Positions 11,224 to 64,000 of a stretch of DNA of 64,000 nt are shown one piece after another. Made by a program: the position numbers and the translations under genes. This stretch comes from an uncultured Hyphomicrobiaceae bacterium (GTDB taxonomy: Bacteria; Pseudomonadota; Alphaproteobacteria; Rhizobiales; Rhodomicrobiaceae). Position 1 is the stretch's first letter. Every line of letters starts with the position of its first letter. The notes beneath the pieces were generated by a model. That model had not been told where the DNA came from. It saw only the letters and a list, made by a program, of their open reading frames with translations, and ran no database searches. Location: assembly GCA_964407075.1 (NCBI GenBank), contig CAYOUE010000001.1, positions 1,478-65,477 on the forward strand, given 5' to 3'.

Positions 11224-11241
11224 AAGATGGAGGTAGCTGAC

Positions 11242-12880: not shown

Positions 12881-12990
12881 CTGCGTCCTGCAAGCTCATA
12901 CGTCCCGGCGCGGCCCGCCGGGACGTATGAGCATCGAACGGAGGGTGCGTATGGCCGCGCTCTTCGGGCCATTCACCGGGGAGCGCGTCA

Positions 12991-13503: not shown

Positions 13504-13504
13504 C

Positions 13505-14845: not shown

Positions 14846-14861
14846 AAAAAGGAGACGCCTC

Positions 14862-30676: not shown

Positions 30677-31336
30677 GTGATTCGACTTGAAAAAATGGGC
30701 CTGCGCTACGGGCTGGGACAGGAAGTCCTGCGCGACGTCAGCTTTCACCTGCTGCCCGGTTCGTTTCACTTCCTGACCGGCTCGTCGGGCGCGGGCAAGA
30801 CGTCGCTGCTCAAGATCCTGTTCATGTCGCTGCGCCCTACCCGCGGCGCGGCCTATATCTTCGGCAAGAACGTGACGCGCGCGACGCCCGAGCAGCGCGC
30901 CGCGCTCCGCCGCCGCATCGGCATCGTGTTTCAGGACTTCCGGCTGCTGGATCACATGACGACATGGGAAAACGTCGCGCTGCCTTTGCGTGTTCACGGC
31001 AAGAGACAATCGGAATACGCCGAAGACGTCACCGAACTGTTGAAATGGGTCGGGCTGGGAGAACGAATCCATGCCTATCCTCCCGTTCTCTCAGGCGGTG
31101 AAAAGCAGCGCGCAGCCATCGCGCGCGCCGTGATCGGCAAGCCGGAACTCTTGCTCGCCGACGAACCGACAGGTAACGTGGATCCGCAAATGGCCAGGCG
31201 GCTCCTGCGTCTGTTCGTCGAACTCAACAGGCTCGGCACCTCCGTGATTATCGCGACGCACGATTACCAGCTTCTGACACAGTTTCCGGCACCCCGGCTC
31301 ATACTGGACAACGGCCGCCTGAACATTCATAGCTGA
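30677..31336 (+). CDS. ftsE: Cell-division ABC ATPase FtsE
   Basis: Walker A GSSGAGKTS, signature LSGGEKQR, Walker B LLLADEPTG. Followed by the ftsX-like gene. GTG start. Confidence 0.9.
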   Translation: MIRLEKMGLRYGLGQEVLRDVSFHLLPGSFHFLTGSSGAGKTSLLKILFMSLRPTRGAAYIFGKNVTRATPEQRAALRRRIGIVFQDFRLLDHMTTWENVALPLRVHGKRQSEYAEDVTELLKWVGLGERIHAYPPVLSGGEKQRAAIARAVIGKPELLLADEPTGNVDPQMARRLLRLFVELNRLGTSVIIATHDYQLLTQFPAPRLILDNGRLNIHS

Positions 31337-31341
31337 GCGCC

Positions 31342-32316
31342 ATGAACACCCCCGTCCACGACAGCCGCCTTCCAGCAATCAAGCAGCCGGAGCCGGCGAA
31401 GCGGCGTTTCCCTTCCGGCAAGGCGCCCATCGTGCCGCCTGGCTCGGTGACGGGACGCGCGCTGATCTGGGTGATCGCGATCATGGGATTTTTGTCCAGC
31501 CTCACCGCGGGTGCGGTCTACATGATCGACGATTCCCGCCGTGCCTGGCTGAGCGACGTCGCCAGCGAAGTGACCGTCGAAGTCAAGCCCGAAGGCGCCG
31601 CCGAGGAAGTCGACGCGCGCGCGCGCGATGTCACTGCGTTCCTGAACGGGCAGAACGGCGTCACGAACGTCACGCTGCTGACGCTGGAGGAGTCGGCGGA
31701 TCTGGTCGAACCCTGGCTCGGGCAGGTGTCGGCGGTGCAGGACCTGCCTTTTCCGCGCCTCATCGCCGTCCGGCTCGACGTCAACGACCCGCCCGATATC
31801 ACGGCGCTGCGCGGTGCGCTGCAGACCCGTTTTCCCGATGCAGTCCTGGACGACCACCGCGCCTGGCAGCAGCAGATCCGCCGCGTGACCGGCTCGCTCG
31901 CACTCGGCGGCCTCGCGGTGATGGCGCTGATGGCGGCGGCTACGATCGGTATCATCGTCTCCGCGGCGCGCAGCGCGATCGCCTCGAACAAGGATATCGT
32001 CGAGGTCCTCAATTTCGTTGGCGCAGACGAGAGATTCATCGCCCGCCAGTTCGAGCTGCATTTCCTCAAGGTGGGGATAAAAGCCGGAGTTGTCGGCGCT
32101 GTAGGGGCCGCGCTGGTCTTCCTCTCGCTCCCCGTGCTCACCGATTTCCTTAGCGGCGCCGCGACCGACATCGAATTGCGCAGGCTGATCGGCACGGGGC
32201 GTCTCGATCCGCTCGGCTACGCCAGCATCGCGCTCGTCGTGGTAATCATCGCGGCGATCTGTTCACTGACTTCGCGCATCGGCGTTCGCCGCATTCTCAA
32301 CGCGCAGAACCAGTAA
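31342..32316 (+). CDS. ftsX: Cell-division permease-like protein FtsX
   Basis: Four-TM FtsX topology with a periplasmic loop domain, immediately downstream of ftsE. Confidence 0.85.
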   Translation: MNTPVHDSRLPAIKQPEPAKRRFPSGKAPIVPPGSVTGRALIWVIAIMGFLSSLTAGAVYMIDDSRRAWLSDVASEVTVEVKPEGAAEEVDARARDVTAFLNGQNGVTNVTLLTLEESADLVEPWLGQVSAVQDLPFPRLIAVRLDVNDPPDITALRGALQTRFPDAVLDDHRAWQQQIRRVTGSLALGGLAVMALMAAATIGIIVSAARSAIASNKDIVEVLNFVGADERFIARQFELHFLKVGIKAGVVGAVGAALVFLSLPVLTDFLSGAATDIELRRLIGTGRLDPLGYASIALVVVIIAAICSLTSRIGVRRILNAQNQ

Positions 32317-49641: not shown

Positions 49642-50934
49642 TCAGAGCGAGATGCGTTCGATCTCTGCGCCGCAACCGCTCAGCTTTTCTTCCAGCCGCT
49701 CGAAGCCCCTGTCGAGGTGATAGACGCGGTTGATCGTGGTTTCGCCCTCCGCAACCAGTCCGGCGATGACCAGCGAAACGGATGCGCGCAGATCGGTCGC
49801 CATGACTTCCGCTCCGCGCATCGCGCGCACGCCGCGTATATGGGCGGTGTCGCCGCTGATCCTGATATCGGCGCCCAGGCGGGCCAGTTCCTGCACGTGC
49901 ATGAAGCGGTTCTCGAAGATCGTCTCGCGTATCGTGGAAGTTCCCGCCGCCTTCGCCATCAGCGCCATGAGCTGAGCCTGCAGATCGGTGGGAAATCCCG
50001 GGAATGGTTGCGTTTCGATATTCACCGCACGCAGCCCGGAGCCGTTCCGCGAAACGCTGATGCCGCGATTGGTCCCGGCAATCGAAACGCCGGCTTCAGT
50101 GAGCGTGTCGAGCGCGGACTGAAGCAGATCCGGCCTTGCGCCTTCCAGCAGCACTTCGCCGCCGGCCGCGGCGACCGCCATCGCATAGGTTCCGGTTTCG
50201 ATACGGTCGGGCAGGACGGTGTGGATCGCGCCTTCGAGATAGTCCGTTCCCTGAACGTGCAGCGTGGAGGTTCCGATGCCCTCGATGCGAGCGCCCATCT
50301 TGACCAGGCACTCGGCCAGATCGCCGACTTCCGGCTCGCGCGCGGCGTTTTCGATCACGGTTTCGCCTCTGGCCAGCGCCGACGCCATCAGCACGTTATG
50401 CGTCGCGCCGACCGAGACCAGCGGAAATTCGATCCGCGCGCCCCGCAGGCCGCCGCGCGGCGTCTTCGCCACGACATAACCGCCGGTCAGTTCCATCTGC
50501 GCGCCAAGCTTCTCCAGTCCCATGAGATGAAGATCGACGGGCCGCGTGCCGATCGCGCATCCGCCGGGAAGGGACACGGTCGCCTCTCCATGCCTGGCCA
50601 GCAACGGCCCGAGCACCCAGAAACTGGCGCGCATCCTGCGAACCATGTCGTAGGGCGCGCGCGAATCGACGATCTCACGTGCGGTCAGATGAAACGTTTC
50701 GCCCACGCAGCCATTGCTGTTCGCCCGCTTGCCGTCCACCGCGCAATCGACGCCATGATTACGCAGGATGCGGGCGAGAAGGTTCGTGTCGGCCAGATTC
50801 GGCATGTTCTTCAGCGTCAGCGTCTCCGATGTGAGCAGGCTGGAGATCATCAGCGGCAGGGCTGCGTTCTTTGCGCCGCTGATCGGAATGACGCCGTTGA
50901 GCGGTTTTCCGCCCCTGATGCGAATCTGGTCCAT
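49642..50934 (-). CDS. murA: UDP-N-acetylglucosamine 1-carboxyvinyltransferase
   Basis: [29 protein letters not shown] start and MurA-like sequence throughout, including the active-site loop [12 protein letters not shown]. Confidence 0.93.
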
Positions 50935-51029
50935 CAATGAATCCGCCCGTTTTAGAGATATGTCGCCGGTATGACCGTTAAGGATTAAACGAGCGGGCAT
51001 CATGGCGCAAGCCCGGCGCCGGCGCAGCC

Positions 51030-51191
51030 TTACGCGCCATACTTTTCGGGATCTTCGCCGCCTTCGCCGCTGTCCTTGCGTGCCCGGGCCTGCGCCTTGC
51101 GGCGCTTCAGATTCTCCCGCAGCCGGGCGGCGAGGCGGGCTTCGCGTTCAGCGCGGGCATCGGATTTCGGCGTCCTGGGGGTTCCGGTCAT
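51030..51191 (-). CDS. Small (53-aa) basic protein upstream of murA, below the ORF-track length cutoff
   Basis: My own translation reads [53 protein letters not shown]. The third codon position is high in GC, as in neighbouring genes. Confidence 0.4.
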
Positions 51192-51353
51192 GCGCTTGGC
51201 CTCGATGATGGCAGTTCCGGATCTTAGGCCGTGGCACGCCCTTTTTCCAGCCTGTCCGGAGGCCGCGAAGCAGGCGGCCGCACGCCTGCGCTCACCTCTT
51301 GTCTATTCGCCGGCATCATGGCATTGTCCGCCAGCGTCAGCCGCCTGCCTTCA

Positions 51354-51428
51354 GCCGCAGTAGCTCAGTGGTAGAGCGCACCCTTGGTAAGGGTGAGGTC
51401 GGGAGTTCAATCCTCCCCTGCGGCACCA
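51354..51428 (+). tRNA. tRNA-Thr (anticodon GGU)
   Basis: Acceptor stem gccgcag/ctgcggc, D arm tagctcagtggtagagc, anticodon stem-loop caccc-ttGGTaa-gggtg, T arm gggagttcaatcctccc and an encoded CCA. Followed by a T-run. Confidence 0.92.
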
Positions 51429-51456
51429 GCTTTTTTCCGCTTCATCTGCCTGTCAG

Positions 51457-51496
51457 TACCCACAGGCGCACAAGTTTACCCACAGGCGCACAAGTT
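51457..51496 (+). repeat. Perfect tandem duplication of a 20-bp unit (tacccacaggcgcacaagtt x2), 29 bp downstream of the tRNA
   Basis: Read directly from the sequence: copy 1 at 51457-51476 and copy 2 at 51477-51496. Confidence 0.9.
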
Positions 51497-51503
51497 TGCA
51501 GCG

Positions 51504-52535
51504 TCATTCCGGCGCCGTGGTGCTTCGGCTGCTCGTGCTGAAGTCGTCCGCCGGGTTTTTCGGCGCTTCCGAGCGTGTGGCCCAAAGCGAGATCAGAATG
51601 CCTGCGGCCAGGAGCGCGATGGTAACCGAGAGCGAAATCACGGGCGGGATTTTGGCGAGATCGAAATAATCCGCTACGAAGACCTTTCCTCCGATGAATA
51701 TCAGGACCGAAGCCAACGCATATTTGAGATAGACGAAACGCGCCTGCATCGCCGACAACGCGAAAAATAGTGCGCGAAGTCCTAATATGGCAAAGACGTT
51801 CGATGTGTAGACGATGAAGGGATCGGTGGTGATCGCAAAGATCGCAGGCACTGAATCGACGGCGAAGATCACGTCGGCTATCTCGATCATCACCAGTGCC
51901 ATGAGCAGAGGCGTGATGTAGAGGACGCGTTTTCCGGTTTTCGGTTCAGGCAGCCGCACAACGAAGCGCGAACCGTGATATTCGTTGGTGACGCGGAAAC
52001 GCCGCCGCATGAAATTCACGAGCGGATTGTCGCCGATCGGCTTTTCCTGGCCGTCCCAGAACAACATCCTGACGCCGGTGAAGATCAGGAATGCGGCGAA
52101 CAGGTAAAGAATCCATTCGAATTCGGAAATGAGCGCGGCTCCTGCGCCGATCATGACGCCGCGCAACAGGATTACGCCGAGTATGCCCCAGAACAGGACC
52201 CTGTGCTGGTAGCGCCTCGGAACGGCGAAATAGCTGAAAATCGCCGCAATGACGAAGATGTTGTCCATTGCGAGCGTCTTTTCGACGACAAAACCGGTCA
52301 GGTAGTTCACGCCGGCTGTTTGGCCGAGCTGATACCAGACGAAAATGCCGTAGCTGAGCCCGAATACGATGTAAAAGGCTGAAAGCTGAAGGCTTTCCTT
52401 GACCCCGATTTCCTTTTCCTTGCGGTGCAGTACGCCAAGGTCGAAAGTCAGCAGAGCAATCACGATGAAGAAGAATGCAATCCACATCCAGACGGGTTTG
52501 CCAAGCCAGTCTGCGAACAGAAATGTTGCGTCCAC
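51504..52535 (-). CDS. TerC/Alx-family integral membrane protein
   Basis: FVVEKTLAMDNIFVIAAIF and FAVDSVPAIFAIT motifs are typical of TerC. GTG start. Confidence 0.88.
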   Translation of the reverse strand: MDATFLFADWLGKPVWMWIAFFFIVIALLTFDLGVLHRKEKEIGVKESLQLSAFYIVFGLSYGIFVWYQLGQTAGVNYLTGFVVEKTLAMDNIFVIAAIFSYFAVPRRYQHRVLFWGILGVILLRGVMIGAGAALISEFEWILYLFAAFLIFTGVRMLFWDGQEKPIGDNPLVNFMRRRFRVTNEYHGSRFVVRLPEPKTGKRVLYITPLLMALVMIEIADVIFAVDSVPAIFAITTDPFIVYTSNVFAILGLRALFFALSAMQARFVYLKYALASVLIFIGGKVFVADYFDLAKIPPVISLSVTIALLAAGILISLWATRSEAPKNPADDFSTSSRSTTAPE

Positions 52536-52874
52536 GGGTATGCCTTTCGGTCTGGGGCCGGTGCGCCGGAAATATTCGTCGGGACGGTGTCAGGGGGAGC
52601 CGAGCGCCGGACTGTCCTGGCCAGACGAAGCGGAAATGGGGCCAACCCAGCCGCGTATCAACATCCCGCGATGGGTTGAAAAAAATATTTCCCGGCCCGG
52701 AACCGCGCGTCAGTCCGGCGTGATAAATTTTTGCGAGCCGCTTGCCGAATTCCATGCGGAGTGCTTATCTCAACAGCTGGCGACAGGCCCAGCCTTTCAG
52801 CGCGCCTCGTGTCATGAGCAACACGCCACTGGCCCGGACCTTGCCGCACCCCGCGCGGCGGGCCGCCGCGTTTC

Positions 52875-53240
52875 ATGGTGTGGTTCGTTCAAATGTCACA
52901 TTTTGCCGTTGTCGCGGGCGAAGCTGCTCTGCTTGCAGCAGTCGTCGCATCGCTCTTCTTAATATCGCTTGCGTTCAGGAATCCCGCTTGGGACACGTGG
53001 CTGGATAACGAATTTGCTGCGACAAGCGTGGCCATCCTCTTCACAGCAGCCTTTGCGATCGCATTCGCCGTGCTTGTGGAAGGTCTTATCGAGTCCGATT
53101 TCGACTACCGTCTGGCGATGGCGGCCGCCACGCTCTACAGCGGCGGCATCGGCGTATTGCTCTGGACAGTCATGCGAATGACATCGCGCCGCTCAGACGG
53201 CGATCGGAAGTATCTGCAAGCGGGTGTTCCGCAGCACTGA
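52875..53240 (+). CDS. Small membrane protein (3-4 TM), function unknown
   Basis: Hydrophobic helices are present and no motif is recognised. The start is 52875 or 52893. Confidence 0.5.
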   Translation: MVWFVQMSHFAVVAGEAALLAAVVASLFLISLAFRNPAWDTWLDNEFAATSVAILFTAAFAIAFAVLVEGLIESDFDYRLAMAAATLYSGGIGVLLWTVMRMTSRRSDGDRKYLQAGVPQH

Positions 53241-53301
53241 CCGGTTCGAACGCGGCGTCCGGCAGTTATCTGCTGACTCTGATGCAGTATGGCGGCGCGG
53301 C

Positions 53302-53895
53302 TCAGAACGAGAGCCGCGTGACGCCTTCTTCGCGCCTGCGCATTTCCAGCACGATCAGCAGGACGAGGAAGACCCAGAAATTGAGCCAGTGTATGACCCA
53401 GAAGCCTGCGAGGACGCCGACAGTCAGTACGATCCAGACCGAGAGGCCGATGAGGACATGCGCAGCCATGCCCCTGAGCGCGCCGAAAGATCGCCAGCCC
53501 AGAACCGCGATGACGCAGTTGACCGCCGTAAGCGCCCCTGCGCAGCCCAGCAGGATCTGCGAAAACAGGATATGCCGGGCCGGGATCGTCTCGCCTGACG
53601 CGAAAGACAGGTCTCCGATGTAGCCAGCCAGAATATTGACGAAACGGACTTCATGCCAGAAGCCCGAAATATCCCAAAGGCTTGCGGCGGAGACCTCCTT
53701 TGTGAAATCGGCGAAGACGCCGGTTGCGATCGCAAGCAGGCTTCCGCAGGCGATGGCGAGGCTCCAGCAGAACGGGATGGAGAACATGCCCCGGTTGTCG
53801 AGGCGCTCCGCAAGGTCGAGCGCGCCCGTGTGCACGAGCCAGGGCAGGACGACGATCAGCAGCAGATTTTCTGCCGCAACGGAAAGAAAGGACAT
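53302..53895 (-). CDS. Polytopic membrane protein (about 6 TM), function unknown
   Basis: Clean ORF with alternating hydrophobic helices. No family recognised. Confidence 0.6.
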   Translation of the reverse strand: MSFLSVAAENLLLIVVLPWLVHTGALDLAERLDNRGMFSIPFCWSLAIACGSLLAIATGVFADFTKEVSAASLWDISGFWHEVRFVNILAGYIGDLSFASGETIPARHILFSQILLGCAGALTAVNCVIAVLGWRSFGALRGMAAHVLIGLSVWIVLTVGVLAGFWVIHWLNFWVFLVLLIVLEMRRREEGVTRLSF

Positions 53896-53974
53896 CGTTC
53901 AGCAGTCTCCGATGTCCGGAAGGCTGCCGAACAGGCCAGCCGCTGTTGCACGGATTTGTAGCCGCAGCCTCATC

Positions 53975-55036
53975 TCATTCAGCCGTTCCCGAATTCGCCC
54001 GGTTGAAAATACGGGATTCGATCTTCGTGATCCGGTCCTCGATGTTCTCGATCTTTTTGGCCTCCACCTGTGTCATACTATAGGCGTCGTCGAGCGTCTG
54101 GTTCTGCAGCGCCGTATATCTGAAAGGATCGAAACTCAACACGAGGGCAGGCAACGGAAAGATATTCACGTCTATCCCGCTCAAACGGACGTTGCCCGAA
54201 TATTCCCCGGCTTGCGCGAGCTTGCGCAGCAAAACGACTTCGAAGAAGGCCATGATCCCTGATGTGCGTTCAGCGTAGTCGTCGACCTTGCTGCTGAAAG
54301 CCGCAAGCTCCTCGGACGAAAGATTGCGGTCGTGCCGGAACGAAACCGTCAGTCCGGGGATCAGCCCGACGCTGACCTGCACGTCCACAAGGGCAAACCC
54401 GCTTTCGTCGACCAGAAGGGCGAATTCGCTGGCCCCCTGAGCGCGTAATCGCTCCTTGACGCCGTCGACAACGTCGTCGGACCAGTCCTGCAGGATCGAG
54501 AAGCTGTTATATCCTGTCAGAGCCGCATTCCCTGCATTGTTCATGGCGGAACTGGAACTCGACACGACCCAGTCGCCGGCATCCCTGGCGGCGCTGACGG
54601 CGTTCTCCGAATGAAGCCTCATCCAGCCGGTCGCGTCCCACGCCGCGTCGATTGCCTCGTCCGAGCGCAGCTTTATCCATTCGCCCGCCTCTTCAGCAGC
54701 TTCCGCCATGGCGCGGCTACCTGCGATGATCCATTCGCTCGTACTTCTTGCGGCGGAGACCATCGGATCGACGGCGCCGCTACGAATGGACTGCTCGATA
54801 TAATCCCAGTCCGGGTCGTAGCCCATTACGGTCATGCCATAGGACGACGACTGAGCCGTATACGCAAGCGGGCTTCCGGGGCCCTTGCCATGCGCAGCGC
54901 CGGGTGAGTCTCCGTCGAGCGGCATTGCGGGCGAGCGCAGGGACGTGCGCGTCTCGCTCTCGGCCATTTCGGCGGAAATGGGACCGTTCGCCAAAAATGC
55001 GAAGAGAAAAACTGCTGCTGAAAGGCGGATCGTCAT
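53975..55036 (-). CDS. Secreted protein with four 18-aa Trp-centred repeats and a C-terminal coiled-coil-like tail, function unknown
   Basis: Signal peptide MTIRLSAAVFLFAFLANGPISAE. Repeats are VSAARSTSEWIIAGSRAM / AEAAEEAGEWIKLRSDEA / IDAAWDATGWMRLHSENA / VSAARDAGDWVVSSSSSA. Confidence 0.65.
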   Translation of the reverse strand: MTIRLSAAVFLFAFLANGPISAEMAESETRTSLRSPAMPLDGDSPGAAHGKGPGSPLAYTAQSSSYGMTVMGYDPDWDYIEQSIRSGAVDPMVSAARSTSEWIIAGSRAMAEAAEEAGEWIKLRSDEAIDAAWDATGWMRLHSENAVSAARDAGDWVVSSSSSAMNNAGNAALTGYNSFSILQDWSDDVVDGVKERLRAQGASEFALLVDESGFALVDVQVSVGLIPGLTVSFRHDRNLSSEELAAFSSKVDDYAERTSGIMAFFEVVLLRKLAQAGEYSGNVRLSGIDVNIFPLPALVLSFDPFRYTALQNQTLDDAYSMTQVEAKKIENIEDRITKIESRIFNRANSGTAE

Positions 55037-55050
55037 TCCGGGGATCTCCC

Positions 55051-55335
55051 TTAGAACAGAATGGGGGCGACCTCGTCAGCACTGCGCGTGAGTTTCTGGT
55101 GAACGCGATAGACGAGCGCGCGCCGGCGCATTTCGGCTGGCAGGACGGAACTGCCCGTCCGTCCGGAAGCGGCCGTCAGATCGGGAAGGAATCCGGTCGC
55201 TGTCACCATGCCTGCAGTCGCTTTGGACAGAAAATAGGGCGCTTCCCTTTCGGATGAAAAATCGGCGACCAATGAGGCGGAAAGGATCGCCAGCCCGATC
55301 GAGGCGGCAAATCCGACCTGAGACGACCTCCTCAT
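55051..55335 (-). CDS. Small secreted protein, function unknown
   Basis: MRRSSQVGFAASIGLAILSASLVA signal-like N-terminus. The stop lies 14 nt before the next gene start. Confidence 0.5.
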   Translation of the reverse strand: MRRSSQVGFAASIGLAILSASLVADFSSEREAPYFLSKATAGMVTATGFLPDLTAASGRTGSSVLPAEMRRRALVYRVHQKLTRSADEVAPILF

Positions 55336-55454
55336 GAAACCCCGCTTGCGATAACTGGGATGGACTTCAGGGCCACGATAGCGTCGAGGAATTACATTTT
55401 CCATAATCCGAAATGCAAAATTGCGTGGAACGTGCGTAGGGCTTGCTGACCGAA

Positions 55455-55859
55455 CTACCGTCCGACGTCATCGGAATCGATCTGCCCTGCGAGCCGCGCG
55501 CGTATGGCCGAGAAAGAGAGGCCGATCGTGAGCAGCGTCGCGACAGAAACCTGGGTCATGACGGTGACGACCCAGCCGCCCGAGACGGTCACGAGCCCTA
55601 GATCGACCAGCATGATGTTAAAGAGCAGGAGAAAGACGGCGACGAGCGCCACACCGCCCGACTTCATCGAGCGCAACATGCTGCGTATCAGAAAGATATA
55701 GCCTGCAAGCATCGCTATTCCGAGCGAGGCGGCGAGCGCGCCGGGGGCGTCGCCCCCGATCGCCCAATGATAGAACGAACGTCCGCTCGGATTGTATGTC
55801 GAGAAGACGAGCAGCATCGTGAACAGCCAGCGAAGCAGAAAATTGACCGGCCCGAACAT
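55455..55859 (-). CDS. Small 4-TM membrane protein, paralogue of 59772-60230
   Basis: LLRWLFTMLLVFSTYNPSGRSFYHW, IFLIRSMLRS and TIGLSFSAIRARLAGQ align with the corresponding segments of the 59772-60230 product. Confidence 0.7.
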   Translation of the reverse strand: MFGPVNFLLRWLFTMLLVFSTYNPSGRSFYHWAIGGDAPGALAASLGIAMLAGYIFLIRSMLRSMKSGGVALVAVFLLLFNIMLVDLGLVTVSGGWVVTVMTQVSVATLLTIGLSFSAIRARLAGQIDSDDVGR

Positions 55860-55865
55860 TCCGGC

Positions 55866-56654
55866 TTACCCCCCGCGCGCGGAAGCGATGGCAAGAAACG
55901 GTTCAGGCGAAATCGAAACCGGACCGCTGAATGGATAGAGAAGCTGTGCGGACAGGACCATCATCGTGATGACCGAACTGGAGATGATGGCGACCAGAAG
56001 CAGGTGAATGAAGACGCTCGGCCCCCGCAGGAACCAGCCGATGACGATGGCCATTCCGGCGCCGACCAGAAGCAGGTGAAAGATAATGTCGGACAGCAGC
56101 GGATCCGGCGCGACGGAAATTCTCTCGACCCGCCGCGAAACCACTTCGTCCAGCAGGGCGGACAGACGTATTTTCACCAACCCGCCGGCTCCGTCTCCGG
56201 CACTGATGACGGCCCTGTCGATCCTGTTGAGCCAGTCGATCGCTTCCGGGCTTTCGCCGCCATTCGCCATGAGCGGCCATTCCTTGATGGCGACCGTCTC
56301 GGAATAGCCGCGCACCGCATCGCTGATCGCAGCGCTGGCCGATTCTCCGGCGAGGGGAGCCTGAGCCACGAGGCGGTTGAGCGCGGCTGCTTCATGAAGG
56401 ACGTTCTGCCGGGCTTCGTTGAACTCGGAAAAGCCGTAGACGATGATGAACCCGAGGACCACCGCGTAGATTTCTGCCGCGACCTGGTTCTTTGCAGGTC
56501 CGACAGCGCTCGCGGAGGTCAACATTCCCGTGAAGATCGTTCTAGCGGCCATCGTACCGATGATGGCGATAAGAATCGTCGGCAGGATTATGACGATAAA
56601 GGCCACGTCGAAGGATAGCGACCCGAGCCAGTTCAGAAAGGATGTAGGCGCCAT
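55866..56654 (-). CDS. Membrane protein with a TM pair at each end and a central soluble domain (resembles the DUF4239 type)
   Basis: Topology is read from the sequence. The C-terminal ...LLYPFSGPVSISPEPF motif recalls DUF4239 proteins (recollection only). Start at the internal ATG 56654. Confidence 0.6.
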   Translation of the reverse strand: MAPTSFLNWLGSLSFDVAFIVIILPTILIAIIGTMAARTIFTGMLTSASAVGPAKNQVAAEIYAVVLGFIIVYGFSEFNEARQNVLHEAAALNRLVAQAPLAGESASAAISDAVRGYSETVAIKEWPLMANGGESPEAIDWLNRIDRAVISAGDGAGGLVKIRLSALLDEVVSRRVERISVAPDPLLSDIIFHLLLVGAGMAIVIGWFLRGPSVFIHLLLVAIISSSVITMMVLSAQLLYPFSGPVSISPEPFLAIASARGG

Positions 56655-56665
56655 GCTGGACTCCG

Positions 56666-57160
56666 TCACTCGGGATGATTCGTCTTGCGGCCGGCCGCGC
56701 CGGCGGCGGCGTACCATCGGCGCGAACGCAGGAGGCCGCGCGGGCGGGCTTTGAGCGAGACGCTTTCACACGCCGCCTTTACGAGATCCTCCGCCTCGGC
56801 CTTCGATATTTCGTTGCGTGCAAGTCCGAGCGCAGCTTCGACCATGAACTCGAACCTGTCCTTTGAAATGCGGTCCGAGCGGGTCTTGAAGCCCCGGGCG
56901 ATGTCCAGCAGCATCCGCCGGACCAGCGACTCCGTCGAGAAGCCGTCGCAGATGGCGGCGCCCACCAGATAGCTCTTGGCGTCGGCCGGACGCAGACCGA
57001 GCTGGAATATGGCGTTGTCGATGATCTTCCATTCGCCTTCATTGTCGAGATAGCGGCATTCAGCCGCCCTGAGACGCATGTAATCGAAGATCGTTGCGCT
57101 GTTGCCGGATGCGCCCCCGCTGCCGCCGACGGCCGGATTGCCCTCAATCATCTCGACCAT
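56666..57160 (-). CDS. Soluble hypothetical protein, first gene of the minus-strand operon
   Basis: Clean ORF 11 nt upstream of the next gene. Two similar helical segments are present (AIFQLGLRPADAKSYLVGAA / EAALGLARNEISKAEAEDLVKAA). No family recognised. Confidence 0.55.
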   Translation of the reverse strand: MVEMIEGNPAVGGSGGASGNSATIFDYMRLRAAECRYLDNEGEWKIIDNAIFQLGLRPADAKSYLVGAAICDGFSTESLVRRMLLDIARGFKTRSDRISKDRFEFMVEAALGLARNEISKAEAEDLVKAACESVSLKARPRGLLRSRRWYAAAGAAGRKTNHPE

Positions 57161-57504
57161 TCTTATCCTGTCGTTCGTTGCTTGTCTGCCCGCAAGGCGG
57201 CAGCCGGTTGACCGGTGCAGCCTCTATTCGATACAGCGACTATTATTTTGTGAACTTTAAATTATCATGAAAGCCAGCAATAAAAAATCTTATTATTGTT
57301 GTCATATGATCTAAAAATATTTATAAAATACGCATTATTTATTTTCGTTAAGAGTATTTGAATTGTGTATTTTCGATTTTATACTCTGATATAGCGATTC
57401 ATTCACGCAGTTCGGCTAGATTTTTCAGCAATGAATCAGTGCCGCCTTACGCGTCCGGCAGCCCAGACACCTGCTGGACGGCGTCTTTCGTTCGAGTTCC
57501 GGCC
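57161..57504. promoter_or_regulatory. Strongly AT-rich divergent intergenic region between two operons of unknown function
   Basis: The stretch 57235-57420 is dominated by A/T runs (for example tattattttgtgaactttaaattatcatg and aaaaatatttataaaatacgcattatttattttcg), in an otherwise GC-rich window. Confidence 0.45.
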
Positions 57505-57921
57505 ATGAGCGCAGACCAGGACAGCCCCGTCAGCCAGGCGTGCTTCGAGCGCGCTGCCTGCGGCTTGCAGCCGGCCATCACCATGCAGCCTTTAGTGCAG
57601 GGCGAGGCAGGGAGGCCGCTCGGCATCGTGATCGCCGAAGTCGTCTGCGAAGAGGATGAGGAAAACGGGCTGTTCGCAGGGCTGGGCGCTTTCGTCCGTG
57701 CGCAGTTGCCCGCCGATCGCGCAGCCGTGGAGATCGCGCTGGAAAGACTGCTCGGCGAATTGTGTCGGAAAGGGCGGAAGTTTAACGCCGGCGCAATCGT
57801 CTCGACCCATATCAAGCTGCTTCGCGGCACTCATGCCGACGGGCGCAAGCTGCTGAAGCTGATTGCGACAGGCACAGCCGTGGCCTTGCCGTCACCAGAT
57901 CCTTCGTCCGTACACGTATAA
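57505..57921 (+). CDS. Hypothetical soluble protein
   Basis: The ORF is in frame from 57358 (TTG). ATG 57505 is chosen because the upstream part lies in the AT-rich spacer. GTG 57439 is an alternative start. Confidence 0.45.
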   Translation: MSADQDSPVSQACFERAACGLQPAITMQPLVQGEAGRPLGIVIAEVVCEEDEENGLFAGLGAFVRAQLPADRAAVEIALERLLGELCRKGRKFNAGAIVSTHIKLLRGTHADGRKLLKLIATGTAVALPSPDPSSVHV

Positions 57922-57939
57922 ACATTGTAAAGGTCCGAC

Positions 57940-58875
57940 ATGCGTCTTCCTAAATTTCCCCACTTCTCCCTGCCGGGCGTCCTCGTTCTGAGCGCCTGCT
58001 TCGCCGTGACCCCGGCATGGCCCCAGGAGGCGGGGACCGGCGCCAGCGCGGAAAGTCCCGCCGCGCTTAGGACCGTCTATGTCGCCGATCCTGCGGCTGG
58101 CTGGTTCGAGGCCTGGTCGGAAGCCAGTCTCAAGGCGGACGGATGGCTGTACCGTCCCGACATACGGATCAAGTCCGGCGCAGACATGCTGGCGGCGGTT
58201 GCGTCCGACCCGTCCGCAATCGGTCTGATTTCACGCGGCGAACTGGCGCGTCTTGAAACCGAGGACACCCCAATCGTCACCGCGGCGCCGACCGGGCAGA
58301 GCGTATGCGCGGCGTTTTCCGTGAATGCGGAACGTCCCGAGGACAGTTTCGGCGATTTTGCGCTGAATCACGGGAGCTTTGAAGTGCTTGTAACCGCCGA
58401 TACGCTGGCGATTGCGGAAGCGCTCGCGCGGGCGCATGGATTGCACGGCCGGATGATCGTGAAGCTGGTCCGGTCATCCGAAGCGCAGGCGCAAATCCTG
58501 TCAGGCAAGCCGGCTATGGCCGCATTTCCGGTTCTGCCTGGAGGGCTGCCTGCCGCCGCTGCGAACGCGCCCGGCCTGCGCTTTATCGGGTTGTCGAGGG
58601 CCGCAGCCGGCGCCCTGGAGTTCCGTGGCTTCGTTCGCGGAGGTTTCCGTACGTCCTTGCTTCATCAACTGCCGCTCGTCGAAGGGGTTGCCACAGCTTG
58701 CGACGAGATTGTCCGCATCAGCGCCCGCGACCCCGCGCGCACGTCCGGACCATATGCGGCGCGGGGCGGCTCATGGTTCGGCTTCCTGTCCGGTTCGGAT
58801 CTCGAAATGCGCGTTCGTCAGGCTCTCGACACACTGATCTCCCTCTGGCGGAACGATATGGAAACAAGAGGGTAG
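57940..58875 (+). CDS. Periplasmic protein with a solute-binding-protein-like appearance, function unknown
   Basis: Signal peptide MRLPKFPHFSLPGVLVLSACFAVTPAWPQ. Alternating alpha/beta character. No firm family recognised. Confidence 0.6.
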   Translation: MRLPKFPHFSLPGVLVLSACFAVTPAWPQEAGTGASAESPAALRTVYVADPAAGWFEAWSEASLKADGWLYRPDIRIKSGADMLAAVASDPSAIGLISRGELARLETEDTPIVTAAPTGQSVCAAFSVNAERPEDSFGDFALNHGSFEVLVTADTLAIAEALARAHGLHGRMIVKLVRSSEAQAQILSGKPAMAAFPVLPGGLPAAAANAPGLRFIGLSRAAAGALEFRGFVRGGFRTSLLHQLPLVEGVATACDEIVRISARDPARTSGPYAARGGSWFGFLSGSDLEMRVRQALDTLISLWRNDMETRG

Positions 58876-58878
58876 GCG

Positions 58879-59775
58879 ATGTCGGAAGCTGCCGGGGAAT
58901 CTGTAGACGGCAAGGATGCAGCCGAGCGCGCTTCCGGCAAGTCCGGTGCATTCGGAACATTCGACGGTGCACGCCGCCGCTCCGGGATCGCAGGACTCGG
59001 CGTAGCTCTCGCCAGCGCTGTCAGAAGTATGGGCGGCGCGGCCCGAGGCGTCCTGCGGCGCGTAAAGGCGGTGGGCGGCAGCGTTTCGGATCGTTTTCTG
59101 GCCGCCTCTGCGCTGGCGCTGGCAGGCATCTCGTTCGCCACGCTCGCGCTCCATCTGCCCGAAAAACAGTCCGGGAGGCTGGACGCCGTCGAACGCTCGA
59201 TCGCCGGGATCGAAACGCGCCTCGGAATTCCATCGGCCCGCCGCGCGGCCTCCGACCCCGCAACAATCCTCGTAGCGGTTCAATTCGTGACGGCGTCCGC
59301 TGAGCGTTCCGCGCCATTCGACACCGCTGTCGCGGTCGCCATAACGCTGATTGGAGAGCACCCGGTCATAGGCCCGCTTCTGGATACGCTCCTTAACGAT
59401 GCCATGGAAGGCGTTCCCGGCCATTACGACCTTCGCGCCGAATACGGCAAGAAGCTGGCCGAGCTGAAAAGTCAGGATCTTCTCGTGGGAACGGACGGTG
59501 CTGTGCCCGCGCCGTCCTTCCCGTTCTCCGGTCTGTTCGGTTTTGGCGGATCCGCGGGCAGCAATCAGGACGGCGCCATCATCGAACGGATCACGTCCGA
59601 TGTCGAAGCCGGCGACTTCGCCAGCGCAGTGCAATTCGTCGTCAAGCTTGACGGGCGGCTGCGTGAGGCATTGGAAAGCTGGCGCGAACAAGCAAGCCGC
59701 CGCGCTGCGCTCGACGCGACCCTGAAAGAGCTGCGCCGGGCGGCTTATCTGGACATTCTCGAAACGCCGTCATGA
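58879..59775 (+). CDS. Membrane-anchored mitofilin/Mic60-like (COG4223-type) protein
   Basis: One TM helix (FLAASALALAGISFATLAL). ...SAPFDTAVAVAITLIGEHPVIGPLLDTLLNDAMEGVPGHYDLRAEY... and C-terminal VEAGDFASAVQFVVKLDGRLREALESWREQASRRAALDATLKELRRAA follow the pattern of alphaproteobacterial mitofilin-domain proteins. Confidence 0.6.
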   Translation: MSEAAGESVDGKDAAERASGKSGAFGTFDGARRRSGIAGLGVALASAVRSMGGAARGVLRRVKAVGGSVSDRFLAASALALAGISFATLALHLPEKQSGRLDAVERSIAGIETRLGIPSARRAASDPATILVAVQFVTASAERSAPFDTAVAVAITLIGEHPVIGPLLDTLLNDAMEGVPGHYDLRAEYGKKLAELKSQDLLVGTDGAVPAPSFPFSGLFGFGGSAGSNQDGAIIERITSDVEAGDFASAVQFVVKLDGRLREALESWREQASRRAALDATLKELRRAAYLDILETPS

Positions 59776-60230
59776 AGAGTTACGCCAACGTCCGCAAGGC
59801 TTTGCCATTGGCCGGCATTCTTGCAAGGTTTCTCCTCGTGACGTTCCTCACGCTGGCGACGTTCAACCCGTCCTATTATTCCGTCTCGACCTGGATCGTC
59901 AGCGATGGTTCGCTCATCAGCCTGAAGGCTGTCACAGGATTCGGGCTCGCCGCGGTCTGGATCGTCCTGTTGCGCATGTCGCTTGAAGGTCTCGGATGGC
60001 TGGGACTCGGCTTTACGGGCATGGCGGCTCTGATCGGGGCGATCCTGGCCGCGCAGTTCGGGTTGCTCGACGGTGTGGCCGGATACACGCTCGTCCTGCT
60101 GCTCCAGATCGCATTCGCCGCCACCATCACTTTCGGACTCGTCTTTTCCTACTGGGTGCGTCAGGCGACGGGCCAGTCCGCCGTCTACAAGCCCGATTTA
60201 CGCCCGGCGACCTTTTTCAGGTTCTTCTGA
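59772..60230 (+). CDS. Small 4-TM membrane protein, paralogue of 55455-55859
   Basis: ATGA start/stop overlap with the upstream gene. LARFLLVTFLTLATFNPSYYSVSTW, IVLLRMSLEG and TFGLVFSYWVRQATGQ align with the paralogue. Confidence 0.7.
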   Translation: MKSYANVRKALPLAGILARFLLVTFLTLATFNPSYYSVSTWIVSDGSLISLKAVTGFGLAAVWIVLLRMSLEGLGWLGLGFTGMAALIGAILAAQFGLLDGVAGYTLVLLLQIAFAATITFGLVFSYWVRQATGQSAVYKPDLRPATFFRFF

Positions 60231-60262
60231 CCCTGCTGCTCAACCGCCGCCTTTGCGGCGCA

Positions 60263-61228
60263 TCAGGTCCTGCCGCCGTCCCAGTCCGCGATCGCCGTAT
60301 CCCTTGACGTTCTGACGGGAAGCGAGGCGGGCAGGAAGGTTGAGCCTTCCGCGATCAGAAATTCGCGCAAGGCGCCCGCAGGCGGCGTCAGGCGTTTGTC
60401 GGCATGGTGCACGACGCGCCATTGCCGCCATGCGGGCAAACCCTTCACGTCCAGAATGGCGAGCCGCTTCGTTTCGATTTCCGCAGCGATGGTGTGGGCG
60501 GATATGAACGCGATCCCAAGCCCGGCCATAACCGCCTGCTTGATCGTCTCGTTCGACGGCATCTCCATGCCCGCTTTCGGCTCAACACCGGCCTCACCGA
60601 AAAAGCGGGTCATCAGTCCTCTCGTGCCTGACCCCGCTTCCCGCATCAGGAAGATCTCGTCCCTGAGGTCTTTCGGCGCGAGCGCGCGCCTTGCACAGAG
60701 AGGATGGCCGGGCGGCGCGATGATGACGTGAGGATGGTCGCCGAGGACAGCGCTTTCCACGGCAAGGTCTTCCGGCGGGCGCCCCATGATGACGATGTCG
60801 AATTCTAGCGCGGCGAGTCGCCGGATCGTTTCCTCGCGGTTGCCGATGAAAAGCCTCAGGCCGAGTTCGGGATATTTGCGGGCGAAGGCTCCAAGCGCGG
60901 CGGGTGCGAAATATTTCGCGGTGCTGACGACGCCGATCGAGACCGATCCGCCCTTCAGCCCGCGCATGGCGCTCAGTTCTTCCCAACAAGCGGTCAGCTC
61001 GGTTTCGATGCGTTTGGCGCTACCGAGCAGCACCTGACCCGCTGCGGTCGGCTTCATGCGGTCCCGCGTTCTCTCGAACAGAGGCAGGCCGAGCAAGTTT
61101 TCGAGTTGCCTGAGTTGTTGCGTCACCGCAGGCGGCGTCACGTTCAGCGCTTTTGCCGCGGCGAGTACACGCCCGGACGCCGCGATCGCAGCGACAATGC
61201 GCAGTTGCTTGAGGCTGATGCTCCGCAT
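60263..61228 (-). CDS. cbbR: LysR-family regulator of the Calvin-cycle operon, CbbR
   Basis: LKQLRIVAAIAASGRVLAAAKALNVTPPAVTQQLRQLENLLGLPLFER HTH. Divergent from cbbF-cbbP-cbbL. Confidence 0.85.
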   Translation of the reverse strand: MRSISLKQLRIVAAIAASGRVLAAAKALNVTPPAVTQQLRQLENLLGLPLFERTRDRMKPTAAGQVLLGSAKRIETELTACWEELSAMRGLKGGSVSIGVVSTAKYFAPAALGAFARKYPELGLRLFIGNREETIRRLAALEFDIVIMGRPPEDLAVESAVLGDHPHVIIAPPGHPLCARRALAPKDLRDEIFLMREAGSGTRGLMTRFFGEAGVEPKAGMEMPSNETIKQAVMAGLGIAFISAHTIAAEIETKRLAILDVKGLPAWRQWRVVHHADKRLTPPAGALREFLIAEGSTFLPASLPVRTSRDTAIADWDGGRT

Positions 61229-61376
61229 GTCATGAGATTAAGAAATTCTATGCATAAATGAAACAACTATTAATTTTACTAAACCGACAGTTGGCTTCAT
61301 AGTGTCGGACAGAAAAAGATCAAGCCGGACAGCGAGCACAAAGAATGAAAAGTTCAGCCGTTGGGAGGCGGCCGGC
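61229..61376. promoter_or_regulatory. cbbR-cbbF divergent control region (AT-rich)
   Basis: The AT-rich spacer is gagattaagaaattctatgcataaatgaaacaactattaattttactaaa. This is the expected location of CbbR operators. No site is assigned. Confidence 0.4.
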
Positions 61377-62405
61377 ATGGATACCCAGGTCACGCTCGAC
61401 CTCTATCTGAACAGTTGGACACAGGCCGATCGGTCTCGGCGCGCTGTGGCGTCGACGATCAACGCCATAGCCGGAGCCGCAGGCGGCATCGCGGCGCGGA
61501 TCGCCTCGGGACCCCTGCTGGGCGAGCTTGGCGCTTCGGTCGGCGAGAATGCAGACGGCGACGATCAGAAGGAGCTGGACGTCTGGGCCAACAGCCGCCT
61601 CGTCGCGGAACTGCGCGGCGCACCCGTTGCAATCGTCGCATCGGAAGAGTTCGAGGACCTGTTGCTGCTGGACGCCGATGCACCGCTGGCCGTCGCGATG
61701 GACCCGCTGGACGGTTCATCGAACATCGACACGAATGTGTCCATCGGAACGATCTTCTCGATTCTGCCCGGCAAGGGAGAACGAAGTTTCGATCAGCCCG
61801 GTTCGGAGCAACTGGCTGCCGGCTACGTGATTTACGGCGCGCAATGCGCTCTCGTTCTGACTGTCGGGGAAGGCGTGTCGATCTTCACGCTCGATCCGCA
61901 GACCCGGATCTTCCGTCTGACCGCGGATCATGTCGTCATACCCGCCGAGTCTGACGAATATGCCATCAACGCCTCGAATTACCGCCACTGGAGCGACGCC
62001 ATACGCTCCTACATCGACGATTGCCTCGCGGGCGAGGAAGGCCCGCGCGGGACGAACGTCAACATGCGCTGGATCGCATCCCTGGTCGCGGAATGTCACC
62101 GAATCCTGATGCGTGGCGGGGTGTTCCTCTATCCGCGCGACGCGCGCAAGGGGTACGAACGGGGCAGGCTGCGGCTGATCTACGAGGCGAACCCGATCGC
62201 CTTTCTGGTCGAGCAGGCCGGCGGTCAGGCCATCGACGGGTTCACCCGGATTCTCGACATTGCGCCCGAAACCGTTCATCAGCGCACGCCGCTCATGTTC
62301 GGCTCGGCGGACGAGATCGGCCGGATCGCCCGTTACAAGGCAGACCCGAACACGATCTTCGAGCGCTCGCCGCTGTTCGGGCGGCGCGGCCTTTTGCGCG
62401 TCTGA
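61377..62405 (+). CDS. cbbF: Class 1 fructose-1,6-/sedoheptulose-1,7-bisphosphatase
   Basis: DPLDGSSNID metal-binding motif and a GGVFLYP..... signature. GGGAGG RBS before the ATG at 61377. Confidence 0.9.
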   Translation: MDTQVTLDLYLNSWTQADRSRRAVASTINAIAGAAGGIAARIASGPLLGELGASVGENADGDDQKELDVWANSRLVAELRGAPVAIVASEEFEDLLLLDADAPLAVAMDPLDGSSNIDTNVSIGTIFSILPGKGERSFDQPGSEQLAAGYVIYGAQCALVLTVGEGVSIFTLDPQTRIFRLTADHVVIPAESDEYAINASNYRHWSDAIRSYIDDCLAGEEGPRGTNVNMRWIASLVAECHRILMRGGVFLYPRDARKGYERGRLRLIYEANPIAFLVEQAGGQAIDGFTRILDIAPETVHQRTPLMFGSADEIGRIARYKADPNTIFERSPLFGRRGLLRV

Positions 62406-62425
62406 CGGCTGCAAGGAGACGGAGC

Positions 62426-63301
62426 ATGTCCCAGAAGCATCCCATCATTTCCGTCACCGGATCGTCAGGCGCGGGAACATCGACTGTCCGCCATACGTTC
62501 GAGCAGATTTTCCGCCGCGAGGGCGTCAAGGCGGCGATGGTCGAGGGCGACGCCTTTCACCGCTATGACCGCAAGGGAATGCGCGAGGCGATGGTGGAAG
62601 CCGAGCGCGCGGGTAACAGGCATCTCAGCCATTTCGGACCGGAATGCAACCTGCTGTCCGAACTGGAGAAGACATTTCGCGATTACAGCGATAGCGGAAC
62701 CGGACTAACGCGCCATTATGTGCATGACGAAGCCGAGGCGGCGCTTTTCGGAACGCCACCCGGCACATTCACGCAATGGAAGCCATTTCCGTCGGATACG
62801 GACCTTCTGTTTTATGAAGGTCTGCATGGTGCTGTCGTCACCGACACTGTCAATGTCGCGCAATATCCCGACCTGAAAATCGGCGTCGTACCGGTGCTCA
62901 ATCTAGAATGGATCCAGAAAATTCATCGCGACAAGGCGGCGCGCGGTTATTCCGCCGAGGCCGTCACCGACACCATCCTGCGCCGTATGCCGGACTATGT
63001 GCACTATATCTGTCCCCAGTTCACGCAGACCGACATCAATTTCCAGCGCGTGCCGACGGTCGATACTTCCAACCCATTCATCGCCCGCTGGATACCGACG
63101 CCGGACGAATCGATGGTCGTGATCCGCTTCCGCAATCCGCGCGGCATAGACTTCTCCTATCTCGTCTCGATGATCCACGACAGCTTCATGTCGCGCGCGA
63201 ACTCGATCGTGATCCCGGGCGGCAAGCTCGATCTGGCGATGCAGCTCATTCTAACGCCGATGATTATGAAGCTGGTCGAGAGGAAACGCCGCGCGGGCTG
63301 A
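62426..63301 (+). CDS. cbbP: Phosphoribulokinase
   Basis: MSQKHPIISVTGSSGAGTSTV P-loop start and PRK-like sequence throughout. The start is internal to a longer ORF-track entry. Confidence 0.92.
   Translation: MSQKHPIISVTGSSGAGTSTVRHTFEQIFRREGVKAAMVEGDAFHRYDRKGMREAMVEAERAGNRHLSHFGPECNLLSELEKTFRDYSDSGTGLTRHYVHDEAEAALFGTPPGTFTQWKPFPSDTDLLFYEGLHGAVVTDTVNVAQYPDLKIGVVPVLNLEWIQKIHRDKAARGYSAEAVTDTILRRMPDYVHYICPQFTQTDINFQRVPTVDTSNPFIARWIPTPDESMVVIRFRNPRGIDFSYLVSMIHDSFMSRANSIVIPGGKLDLAMQLILTPMIMKLVERKRRAG

Positions 63302-64000
<699 letters not shown>

Follow-up and report, generated by a model that had tools for sequence, protein, structure and literature searches.

A conserved ten-gene block encoding a predicted envelope system, with a Mic60-like protein and two DUF6524 paralogues, in an uncultured Hyphomicrobiaceae bacterium

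A 64-kb stretch of DNA from an uncultured Hyphomicrobiaceae bacterium (the window, by which the whole of the analysed stretch is meant) carries eleven open reading frames (ORFs), with TerC as their left-hand and a LysR/CbbR-type regulator as their right-hand neighbour. The original prediction, made from the sequence alone, took them for one block of envelope proteins with a membrane-organising or structural role. The locus raises two questions, whether these genes belong together and what they would do. Comparison with related loci shows that ten of them, at 53302-60230, encode the components of a conserved and so far undescribed multi-protein system with a predicted envelope location. As to function, we consider it evenly balanced whether the ten genes form the accessory membrane and periplasm part of an undescribed, MCE-less, MlaE-type ATP-binding cassette (ABC) envelope trafficking system. 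The ten ORFs are labelled p2 to p11 from left to right, with 52875-53240 as an extra ORF at the left; transmembrane segments and signal peptides are predictions from a hydropathy scan.

53302-53895, minus strand: p2, 197 aa, predicted polytopic inner-membrane protein with about 5 transmembrane segments
53975-55036, minus strand: p3, 353 aa, predicted signal peptide; predicted to be secreted
55051-55335, minus strand: p4, 94 aa, small, predicted to be secreted, with a signal peptide
55455-55859, minus strand: p5, DUF6524 (PF20134), 4 transmembrane segments, 'D5' subtype
55866-56654, minus strand: p6, 262 aa, Bestrophin-like (PF14023, formerly DUF4239), membrane protein
56666-57160, minus strand: p7, 164 aa, soluble, helical, presumably cytoplasmic; opens the minus-strand operon
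57161-57504, no strand: divergent intergenic region, 344 bp with an AT-rich core; presumed shared promoter or regulatory region
57237-57263, minus strand: 27-nt conserved element, candidate promoter or operator
57505-57921, plus strand: p8, 138 aa, soluble, YbjQ-like (UPF0145)
57940-58875, plus strand: p9, 311 aa, periplasmic, predicted type-2 periplasmic-binding-protein fold
58879-59775, plus strand: p10, 298 aa, bitopic membrane protein, Mic60-like
59772-60230, plus strand: p11, DUF6524 (PF20134), 4 transmembrane segments, 'D11' subtype

Is the block a unit? Among 185,579 species genomes there are 293 loci with a relative, and 80 genome loci that surround DUF6524 genes were fetched for comparison; family models were iterated over all of their ORFs (locus labels such as L003 refer to these, and L003 and L009 are the same locus). 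The original prediction had named conservation of the gene neighbourhood as a check, and orthologues of p2, p3 and p5-p11 are found grouped at 21 of these 80 loci, in Alpha- and Gammaproteobacteria. Orthologues of p2-p11 stand side by side in L003/L009, L004/L010, L006/L011, L008 and L012-L014, and the gene order is shuffled in L015, L017, L018, L025, L026, L035, L047, L049, L050 and L060, as well as in L075, L077, L083 and L085. The hosts are Hyphomicrobiales-like metagenome-assembled genomes (MAGs), Anderseniella (L004), the Rhodobacterales Roseovarius (L006), Ruegeria atlantica and Pseudopelagicola, and further Magnetospirillum aberrantis, Ancylobacter, Terasakiella and an Acetobacteraceae MAG, with Thiobaca trueperi (L018) as the gammaproteobacterial host. 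Orthologues of p2 are present in 13-15 cluster loci, those of p3 in 10 and those of p7 in 14 (Alpha- and Gammaproteobacteria). The small p4 corresponds to a conserved but uncalled signal-peptide ORF in the p5-p3 gap of L003, L004, L006, L012 and L013, and p4-like small ORFs lie in the gammaproteobacterial clusters (L018, 6939-7184; L015, 1039-1257).

The unit is one gene smaller than first proposed: ten genes are syntenic across distant genomes, but the leftmost gene, 52875-53240, is no member. It has no orthologue in any related locus, and its exact or near-identical copies are confined to its own 90%-identity protein cluster. It would encode 121 aa with two or three transmembrane segments and codes plausibly, its GC content at third codon positions (0.64) lying below that of its neighbours; either the gene is specific to this lineage or the ORF is not a gene. 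Since it lacks orthologues, the conserved module consists of the ten genes at 53302-60230. The flanking genes also differ from locus to locus, and TerC and cbbR are therefore incidental; TerC, cbbR and a tRNA-Thr gene were rejected as parts of the module, being its neighbours in no relative.

Certain adjacencies are kept even in the shuffled clusters. These are p7-p6-DUF6524, in which the DUF6524 gene is of the D5 type and always lies directly downstream of the Bestrophin-like gene; p10 followed by a D11-type DUF6524 gene, an arrangement found in at least 8 loci; and a pair of genes, X and ABC/MlaE, described below. Each DUF6524 paralogue thus has a conserved neighbour of its own (p6-p5 and p10-p11), which fits the two related sub-assemblies that had been suggested from the presence of one small four-transmembrane paralogue in each operon.

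The fuller form of the system, which is also the more common one among the relatives, is a single collinear operon, as seen in Anderseniella and the Rhodobacterales, with the order p7-p6-p5-p4-p3-p2-X-ABC/MlaE-p8-p9-p10-p11, p7 being undetected in the Rhodobacterales loci. ABC/MlaE is a fusion protein of 482-506 aa with an N-terminal ABC_tran domain and, as its C-terminal half, an MlaE-type permease that scores 31.1 and 33.3 bits on Pfam MlaE (PF02405; cut-off 22.5). A model of the C-terminal half alone detects the fusion in 12-13 distinct clusters but has no match in the window. X is bitopic, about 350-400 aa long, with a transmembrane segment at its N-terminus and a large domain whose sequence suggests a helical structure; no match to it was found in Pfam, NCBIfam or, by profile search, the PDB sequences. 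Its gene always lies directly upstream of ABC/MlaE and overlaps it, as in L004, where X spans 12538-13659 and the fusion 13652-15106, and the two genes are often translationally coupled to their neighbours in the related operons.

The fusion, with its partner X, is the most informative part of the system. Both genes are absent from the 64-kb window, in which tblastn matches FtsE alone (30677-31336, next to FtsX). The pair is missing locally only here, in L003/L009 and in L008, and all three share the divergent layout. This layout corresponds, as far as gene order can tell, to an inversion of the p7-p2 segment together with the loss or relocation of X and ABC; the two divergent operons seen here are thus, by the same comparison, a rearrangement specific to a lineage of three genomes of what is elsewhere a collinear operon. 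A distance of 2 kb in L018 (Thiobaca) and of 7 kb in L015 separates the X-ABC/MlaE pair from the other genes of the cluster, and the pair can therefore be unlinked from them. In L018 (Thiobaca trueperi) a class I S-adenosylmethionine-dependent methyltransferase gene (ubiE/COQ5-like; 5182-5925, plus strand) lies between the pair and the remaining cluster.

The missing pair raises the possibility that the window holds a decaying remnant or a chance juxtaposition left after loss of the ABC motor. Its absence from the window, L003 and L008 would fit such decay, as would the orthologues of p9 and p2 in L003, the closest long relative, each of which is split by a frameshift into two overlapping ORFs (7014-7647 and 12454-13230), a state that could reflect either (long-read) sequencing error or decay. 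However, all ten module ORFs are intact in the window. The three pump-less genomes differ at 27-60% of residues and have nevertheless kept the gene order and the short gaps, and pairwise ratios of nonsynonymous to synonymous substitution (dN/dS) among them are 0.09-0.39, rough values given a dS of at least 1, near saturation. The genes of this lineage thus appear from their sequences to be under purifying selection, and we consider decay or chance a most improbable explanation.

For p10 a mitofilin-like identity had been guessed, and it holds. A basic N-terminus is followed by one transmembrane segment (residues 73-91), and the last 175 residues share homology with the C-terminal (lipid-binding and mitofilin) region of alphaproteobacterial Mic60. 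Comparison by hhalign of the p10 family profile with the HemD-Mic60 fusion (PF09731) gave a probability of 98.5% (E 3e-15, 171 columns, p10 residues 124-297), and canonical Mic60 used as a tblastn query against the window matched 59173-59715 (E 2e-4). Pfam Mitofilin (PF09731) is matched by 7 of 18 p10 family members (best E 2e-7), a threshold that p10 of the window itself does not reach. Against PDB profiles the best match of the family is the Mic60 mitofilin domain 7pv1_A (E 0.022), and a database search with a concatenated p3+p9+p10 profile returned two proteins only, both Pfam Mitofilin (E 2e-9 and 1e-6). An alignment of the 18 family members shows GVP and GDLxxA...W...A..R motifs, the latter being a mitofilin motif shared with Mic60 of MICOS and of Alphaproteobacteria over a homologous stretch of about 170 residues. 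From these similarities p10 is a short Mic60 paralogue, with a transmembrane anchor and the Mic60 C-terminal region. It differs from Mic60 in size (298 aa as against roughly 450-700 aa) and in having no long coiled coil, with about 30 residues between the transmembrane segment and the homologous region; it also stands outside the hemC-hemD-mic60-orf52 context, its neighbours being p9 and DUF6524, of which DUF6524 is the conserved one.

A Mic60 homologue invites the view that the module is purely structural and shapes membranes with no transporter at all, in the manner of Mic60-Orf52 in intracytoplasmic membranes or of the Mic60 paralogue in the Magnetospirillum magnetosome island, which is close to the idea first put forward for this block. 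There are known cases in which a Mic60 paralogue has been recruited to a specialised membrane structure (bioRxiv 10.1101/2022.06.14.496148), and the magnetosome-island paralogue (same source) provides a precedent for one inside a specialised membrane gene cluster, although the gene set there is entirely different and no magnetosome genes are present here. It is also consistent with such a role that three genomes keep the genes under apparent purifying selection with no linked pump. Against this, the 12-13 related clusters carry the ABC/MlaE fusion and X within the operon and often in translational coupling. Moreover, among the hosts, Ruegeria, Roseovarius and Ancylobacter are to our knowledge not known for intracytoplasmic membranes. 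A purely structural role therefore seems to us quite unlikely. The envelope part of the first idea stands, but its observation that no transporter is visible, true of the window, is probably not true of the system, in view of the ABC/MlaE and X genes of the relatives.

The p9 protein had been thought binding-protein-like, and its structural model bears this out. The AlphaFold2 (AF2) model has a mean predicted local distance difference test (pLDDT) score of 77.8, with the core at about 90, and Foldseek against the PDB returned 333 matches at E<=1e-3 (best E 1.8e-7). All 50 of the 50 matches listed have the type-2 periplasmic binding protein (PBP) fold with probability 1.00; they include LysR effector domains and TAXI-TRAP, Bug/TTT and thiamine-binding proteins, and the best TM-score among the matches listed is 0.54, to the TAXI-TRAP binding protein 9ibo. 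On the strength of this model p9 is a secreted protein with the two-lobed type-2 fold, secretion being predicted. Identity to the TAXI-TRAP, Bug (TTT) and LysR proteins is 8-15%, and p9 is set apart from them by a long C-terminal helix, by a conserved pair of invariant cysteines and, in the case of TAXI-TRAP and Bug, by the lack of TRAP or TTT membrane genes nearby. It has no Pfam match, a profile search of PDB sequences found no meaningful match, and its family is a rare one, with 15 of 1.84 billion representative clusters.

The fold suggests an alternative in which the system takes up or senses a small solute in a binding-protein-dependent manner, p9 handing the solute to the ABC/MlaE-like transporter, with the other membrane proteins as accessory or regulatory parts and a cargo that is not a lipid. 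The confidence of the p9 fold and its nearest neighbours by TM-score, the TAXI-TRAP and Bug-type solute receptors, favour this, as does the presence of a PBP_like_2-type protein at the equivalent position in the Magnetospirillum cluster. In the collinear relatives, too, p9 follows close behind the ABC gene, with the ABC/MlaE fusion two genes upstream. But the permease half of the fusion matches MlaE and not the permease of a type I or II importer, and importers do not need some ten extra envelope proteins, a Mic60 homologue among them. The lineage of the window, finally, keeps p9 with no adjacent transporter, and no cognate transporter for it is present anywhere in the window. We regard solute uptake or sensing as unlikely.

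The reading that we prefer is that of an ABC-powered envelope trafficking machine of MlaE type. Characterised MlaE-family permeases (Mla, Mce and TGD) move lipids or hydrophobic molecules across the envelope, and because of this the cargo would probably be a lipid or another hydrophobic envelope constituent. Alphaproteobacteria have variant MlaE systems that bridge both membranes, and Mpc, a Brucella/Hyphomicrobiales Mla-Pqi chimera of the MlaE family, moves lipids or hydrophobic molecules (PMC12436622). Alphaproteobacterial Mic60, whose canonical locus is hemC-hemD-mic60-orf52, binds membranes and contacts the outer membrane (bioRxiv 10.1101/2022.06.14.496148). Taken together, the cargo of MlaE permeases and the membrane and outer-membrane contacts of Mic60 point to an ABC-driven machine with a Mic60-type contact element. 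The window would encode the inner-membrane and periplasmic scaffold of this machine. In it p10 may act as a Mic60-type membrane-binding element or as a tether from inner to outer membrane, paired with one DUF6524 protein, and p6 and p7 would be paired with the other; p9 would be a periplasmic ligand-binding element, p3 and p4 periplasmic connectors and p8 a cytoplasmic accessory. The motor pair (X and ABC/MlaE) would be supplied from elsewhere in the chromosome, and transcription of the two operons would start from the AT-rich region between them, with its 27-nt element.

Comparison with the MlaE/MCE systems (MlaFEDB, mycobacterial Mce, chloroplast TGD and Mpc) brings out both likenesses and differences. 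Relatives of the module carry an ABC ATPase and an MlaE-family permease, and the whole is likewise multi-component and predicted to span the inner membrane and periplasm. Unlike those systems, the relatives have ATPase and permease fused in one polypeptide, no version of the module includes an MCE, MlaB/STAS or MlaC-like protein, and the module has instead X, two DUF6524 proteins and Bestrophin-like, YbjQ-like, PBP-fold and Mic60-like proteins. The window itself is without an MlaE permease, a dedicated ABC ATPase and an MCE protein. In the Roseovarius MAG (L006) a separate Mla-like operon (MlaE, ABC ATPase and PqiA-like) lies directly downstream on the opposite strand (9444-12350, minus strand), which may be coincidence or a functional neighbourhood of envelope lipid systems.

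Several observations weigh against an MlaE-type trafficking system. First, all characterised MlaE-type systems known to us have an MCE-domain protein, and no MlaD/MCE (PF02470) match was found among the window products or the cluster products of L004, L006 and L018, so that the analogy with Mla and Mce may fail. Second, the MlaE match of the fusion is weak, at about 31-33 bits, and its nucleotide-binding domain matches no specific NCBIfam family. Third, there is no transporter within the 64-kb window, and a transport role here would depend on genes outside it; the split p9 and p2 genes of L003 count on the same side. Fourth, the fold of p9 is typical of small-solute binding proteins and not of lipid carriers, and the lipid nature of the cargo is purely inferred. 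Finally, the AF2 model of p3, made from four sequences, is poor and does not lend itself to interpretation (mean pLDDT 46.6, with the domain at 190-300 reaching 70-87), and the likeness of p6 to bestrophins comes from its Pfam family name alone.

A more specific form of the trafficking reading would make the module the scaffold of a new class of envelope lipid-transfer machine, in which a contact site between inner and outer membrane, formed by the short Mic60 paralogue, is physically coupled to the MCE-less fused MlaE-type ABC transporter. We hold this tentatively and think it unlikely; were it true, bacteria would have an equivalent of the way in which MICOS contact sites are coupled to lipid transfer in mitochondria, built from otherwise uncharacterised families (DUF6524, Bestrophin-like, X, p2, p3 and p7).

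The identity of p6 bears on a further possibility. The guess that 55866-56654 is DUF4239-like proved right, the protein matching Pfam Bestrophin-like, as DUF4239 is now named, over profile positions 8-232 of 232 (E 3.1e-31, 109.1 bits, cut-off 32). It has two plus two transmembrane segments around a soluble helical domain, and its orthologues are 41-73% identical. In the alphaproteobacterial loci L047, L049 and L050 there are two or three tandem Bestrophin-like paralogues, with p3 on the opposite strand. The p8 protein of the window scores 20.5 bits on Pfam YbjQ_1 (PF01906), below the cut-off of 23; its orthologue in L004 exceeds that cut-off at 24.6 bits, and the one in L006 has a precomputed PF01906 match. 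The Pfam names of these two proteins and the TerC gene directly to the left could indicate an ion channel or homeostasis complex around a Bestrophin-like anion channel and a YbjQ-like 'putative heavy-metal-binding' protein, perhaps linked to TerC. Yet TerC neighbours the module in no related locus, the YbjQ name is a historical guess, and a p6 profile built from 17 orthologues matched no solved bestrophin among the PDB sequences, so that the place of p6 in PF14023 is its only likeness to the bestrophin anion channels and a channel role stays putative. Such a complex would also leave the Mic60-like p10, the PBP-fold protein and the MlaE fusion unexplained, and we judge it very unlikely.

The small four-transmembrane proteins, one per operon, that were originally seen as paralogues both belong to DUF6524 and are 28% identical to each other (p5: E 4e-33, 114.4 bits; p11: E 5.4e-19, 68.7 bits; cut-off 27 for each). 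Among 76 homologues of p5 a TYNPS motif is invariant and a C-terminal SGQIDSDDVGR motif is conserved. DUF6524 was dropped as a marker of the module, as it stands alone in six inspected loci (L016, L021, L023, L027, L028 and L055, from Methylophaga, Cellvibrio, Methylococcaceae and others), in five of the six among unrelated housekeeping genes. The family therefore appears to have a wider role, for which the module is not needed.

The remaining members of the module are p2, p3, p4 and p7. In p3 an 18-aa helical repeat is present four times, followed by a conserved alpha/beta domain of about 110 aa and a long C-terminal helix. The repeat occupies residues 95-170 approximately, with a tryptophan every 18 residues and the consensus AARDxGEWIASSSxAA (or, more loosely, AARDxGEWIxxSSxxA), and its copy number varies from four here to six in L003, P0078 and P0079 and none in the Rhodobacterales. 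To judge by this pattern, the repeat looks like a helical periplasmic spacer of variable length. The PDB profile search found nothing significant for p3 and Foldseek nothing below E 0.5; a PilO-like Foldseek match was set aside at a probability of only 0.10, and a divergent MCE/MlaD identity was rejected, the confident domain having the order alpha-beta-beta-alpha-alpha-beta-beta-alpha and no 7-stranded MCE barrel. The p4 protein starts MRRSSQVGF and has the signal peptide ...GLAILSAS.... A conserved C-terminal HWLNFWxFLVLL...RRRE motif marks p2, which has no Pfam, NCBIfam or PADLOC match, and a conserved basic C-terminal GLLRSRRWYR motif marks p7, which has no Pfam or PDB-profile match; both appear to represent conserved families for which no relative with a known function could be detected.

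The AT-rich spacer described originally between the two operons is confirmed. The spacer (57161-57504, 344 bp) has a GC content of 0.413, and its 180-bp core (57220-57400) one of 0.254, against 0.617 for the whole window. Six promoter-like hexamer pairs are present in 52500-60500, compared with 1.5 +/- 1.2 in shuffled sequences, and three of the six fall in the spacer and point both ways. The equivalent regions of L003 and L008 are AT-rich as well (minimum GC per 150 bp of 0.31 and 0.23), and so is the sequence preceding p7 in the collinear operon of Anderseniella (L004, minimum 0.31 per 150 bp). These observations argue that the spacer is the ancestral p7 promoter region, brought beside p8 by the inversion. 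Within it lies the 27-nt element AATTTAAAGTTCACAAAATAATAGTCG (minus strand, 57237-57263), 77-103 nt upstream of the p7 start codon, which equals positions 7871-7897 of L008 at 26 of 27 positions, the flanking spacer having diverged. The element holds TTCACA, then TCGAAT 17 nt later, and is a candidate promoter or operator. An Rfam scan of 50000-64000, which includes the spacer, found tRNA-Thr only.

An ORF scan recovers all eleven ORFs where they were first placed, along with the short gaps and the ATGA overlap. The minus-strand gaps from p7 to p2 are 11, 6, 119, 14 and 79 nt, those on the plus strand from p8 to p10 are 18 and 3 nt, and the p10 stop and p11 start overlap at 59772-59775. The short starts of p6 (at 56654, 262 aa), p8 (at 57505, 138 aa) and p4 (at 55335, 94 aa) are backed by the lengths of their orthologues. 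As originally proposed, almost all of the products are predicted to be membrane-bound or secreted: transmembrane segments are present in p2 (about 5), p5 and p11 (4 each), p6 (2+2) and p10 (1), signal peptides in p3, p4 and p9, and p7 and p8 are soluble. The predicted placement is thus p7 and p8 in the cytoplasm; p2, p5, p6, p11 and the p10 anchor in the inner membrane; and p3, p4, p9 and the Mic60-like domain of p10 in the periplasm. None of the eleven products contains an ATPase, enzyme or transporter domain by Pfam, NCBIfam or PADLOC, in agreement with the original reading of the block, and PADLOC gave no match at all, for which reason a defence-system interpretation was dropped.

A search of a literature library yielded no paper mentioning DUF6524, and the two mentioning DUF4239 were irrelevant; it also found no description of the module, the Mic60 literature consulted covering hemCD-mic60-orf52 and the magnetosome-island paralogue and not this cluster. 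What would be new is an ABC envelope system of MlaE type whose set of accessory proteins is without precedent, here pump-less and rearranged. The module offers a genomic context and a testable hypothesis for DUF6524, the bacterial Bestrophin-like/DUF4239 family, a rare PBP-fold family, p2, p3, p7 and X, and it reveals that Mic60 has a second, short paralogue, which lies outside the hemCD-mic60-orf52 locus and in many genomes is linked to an MlaE-type ABC transporter. If that link is functional, the range of diderm lipid trafficking would extend to a system with no MCE protein, and the link would bear on how, before mitochondria, lipid transport came to be associated with contact sites based on Mic60. 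The complete operon is present in several cultured hosts, which makes experiments feasible; candidates are Pseudopelagicola sp. nBUS_19 (NZ_CP179203.1), Ruegeria atlantica HKCCD9103, Thiobaca trueperi DSM 13587 and Magnetospirillum aberrantis SpK.

Three minor observations concern the surroundings of the module. A tRNA-Thr (GGT) gene lies at 51354-51428 (plus strand) between murA and TerC, 1.4 kb to the left of the block, and no integrase or repeat hinting at an island boundary was seen beside it. The FtsE/FtsX pair at 30677-32316 (plus strand), which has no relation to the module, precedes genes for a DUF218 protein and an acyltransferase. In L004, the gene directly downstream of the operon of Anderseniella, on the other strand (18590-19627, minus strand), encodes an OmpA-domain protein whose N-terminal part is a long coiled coil.

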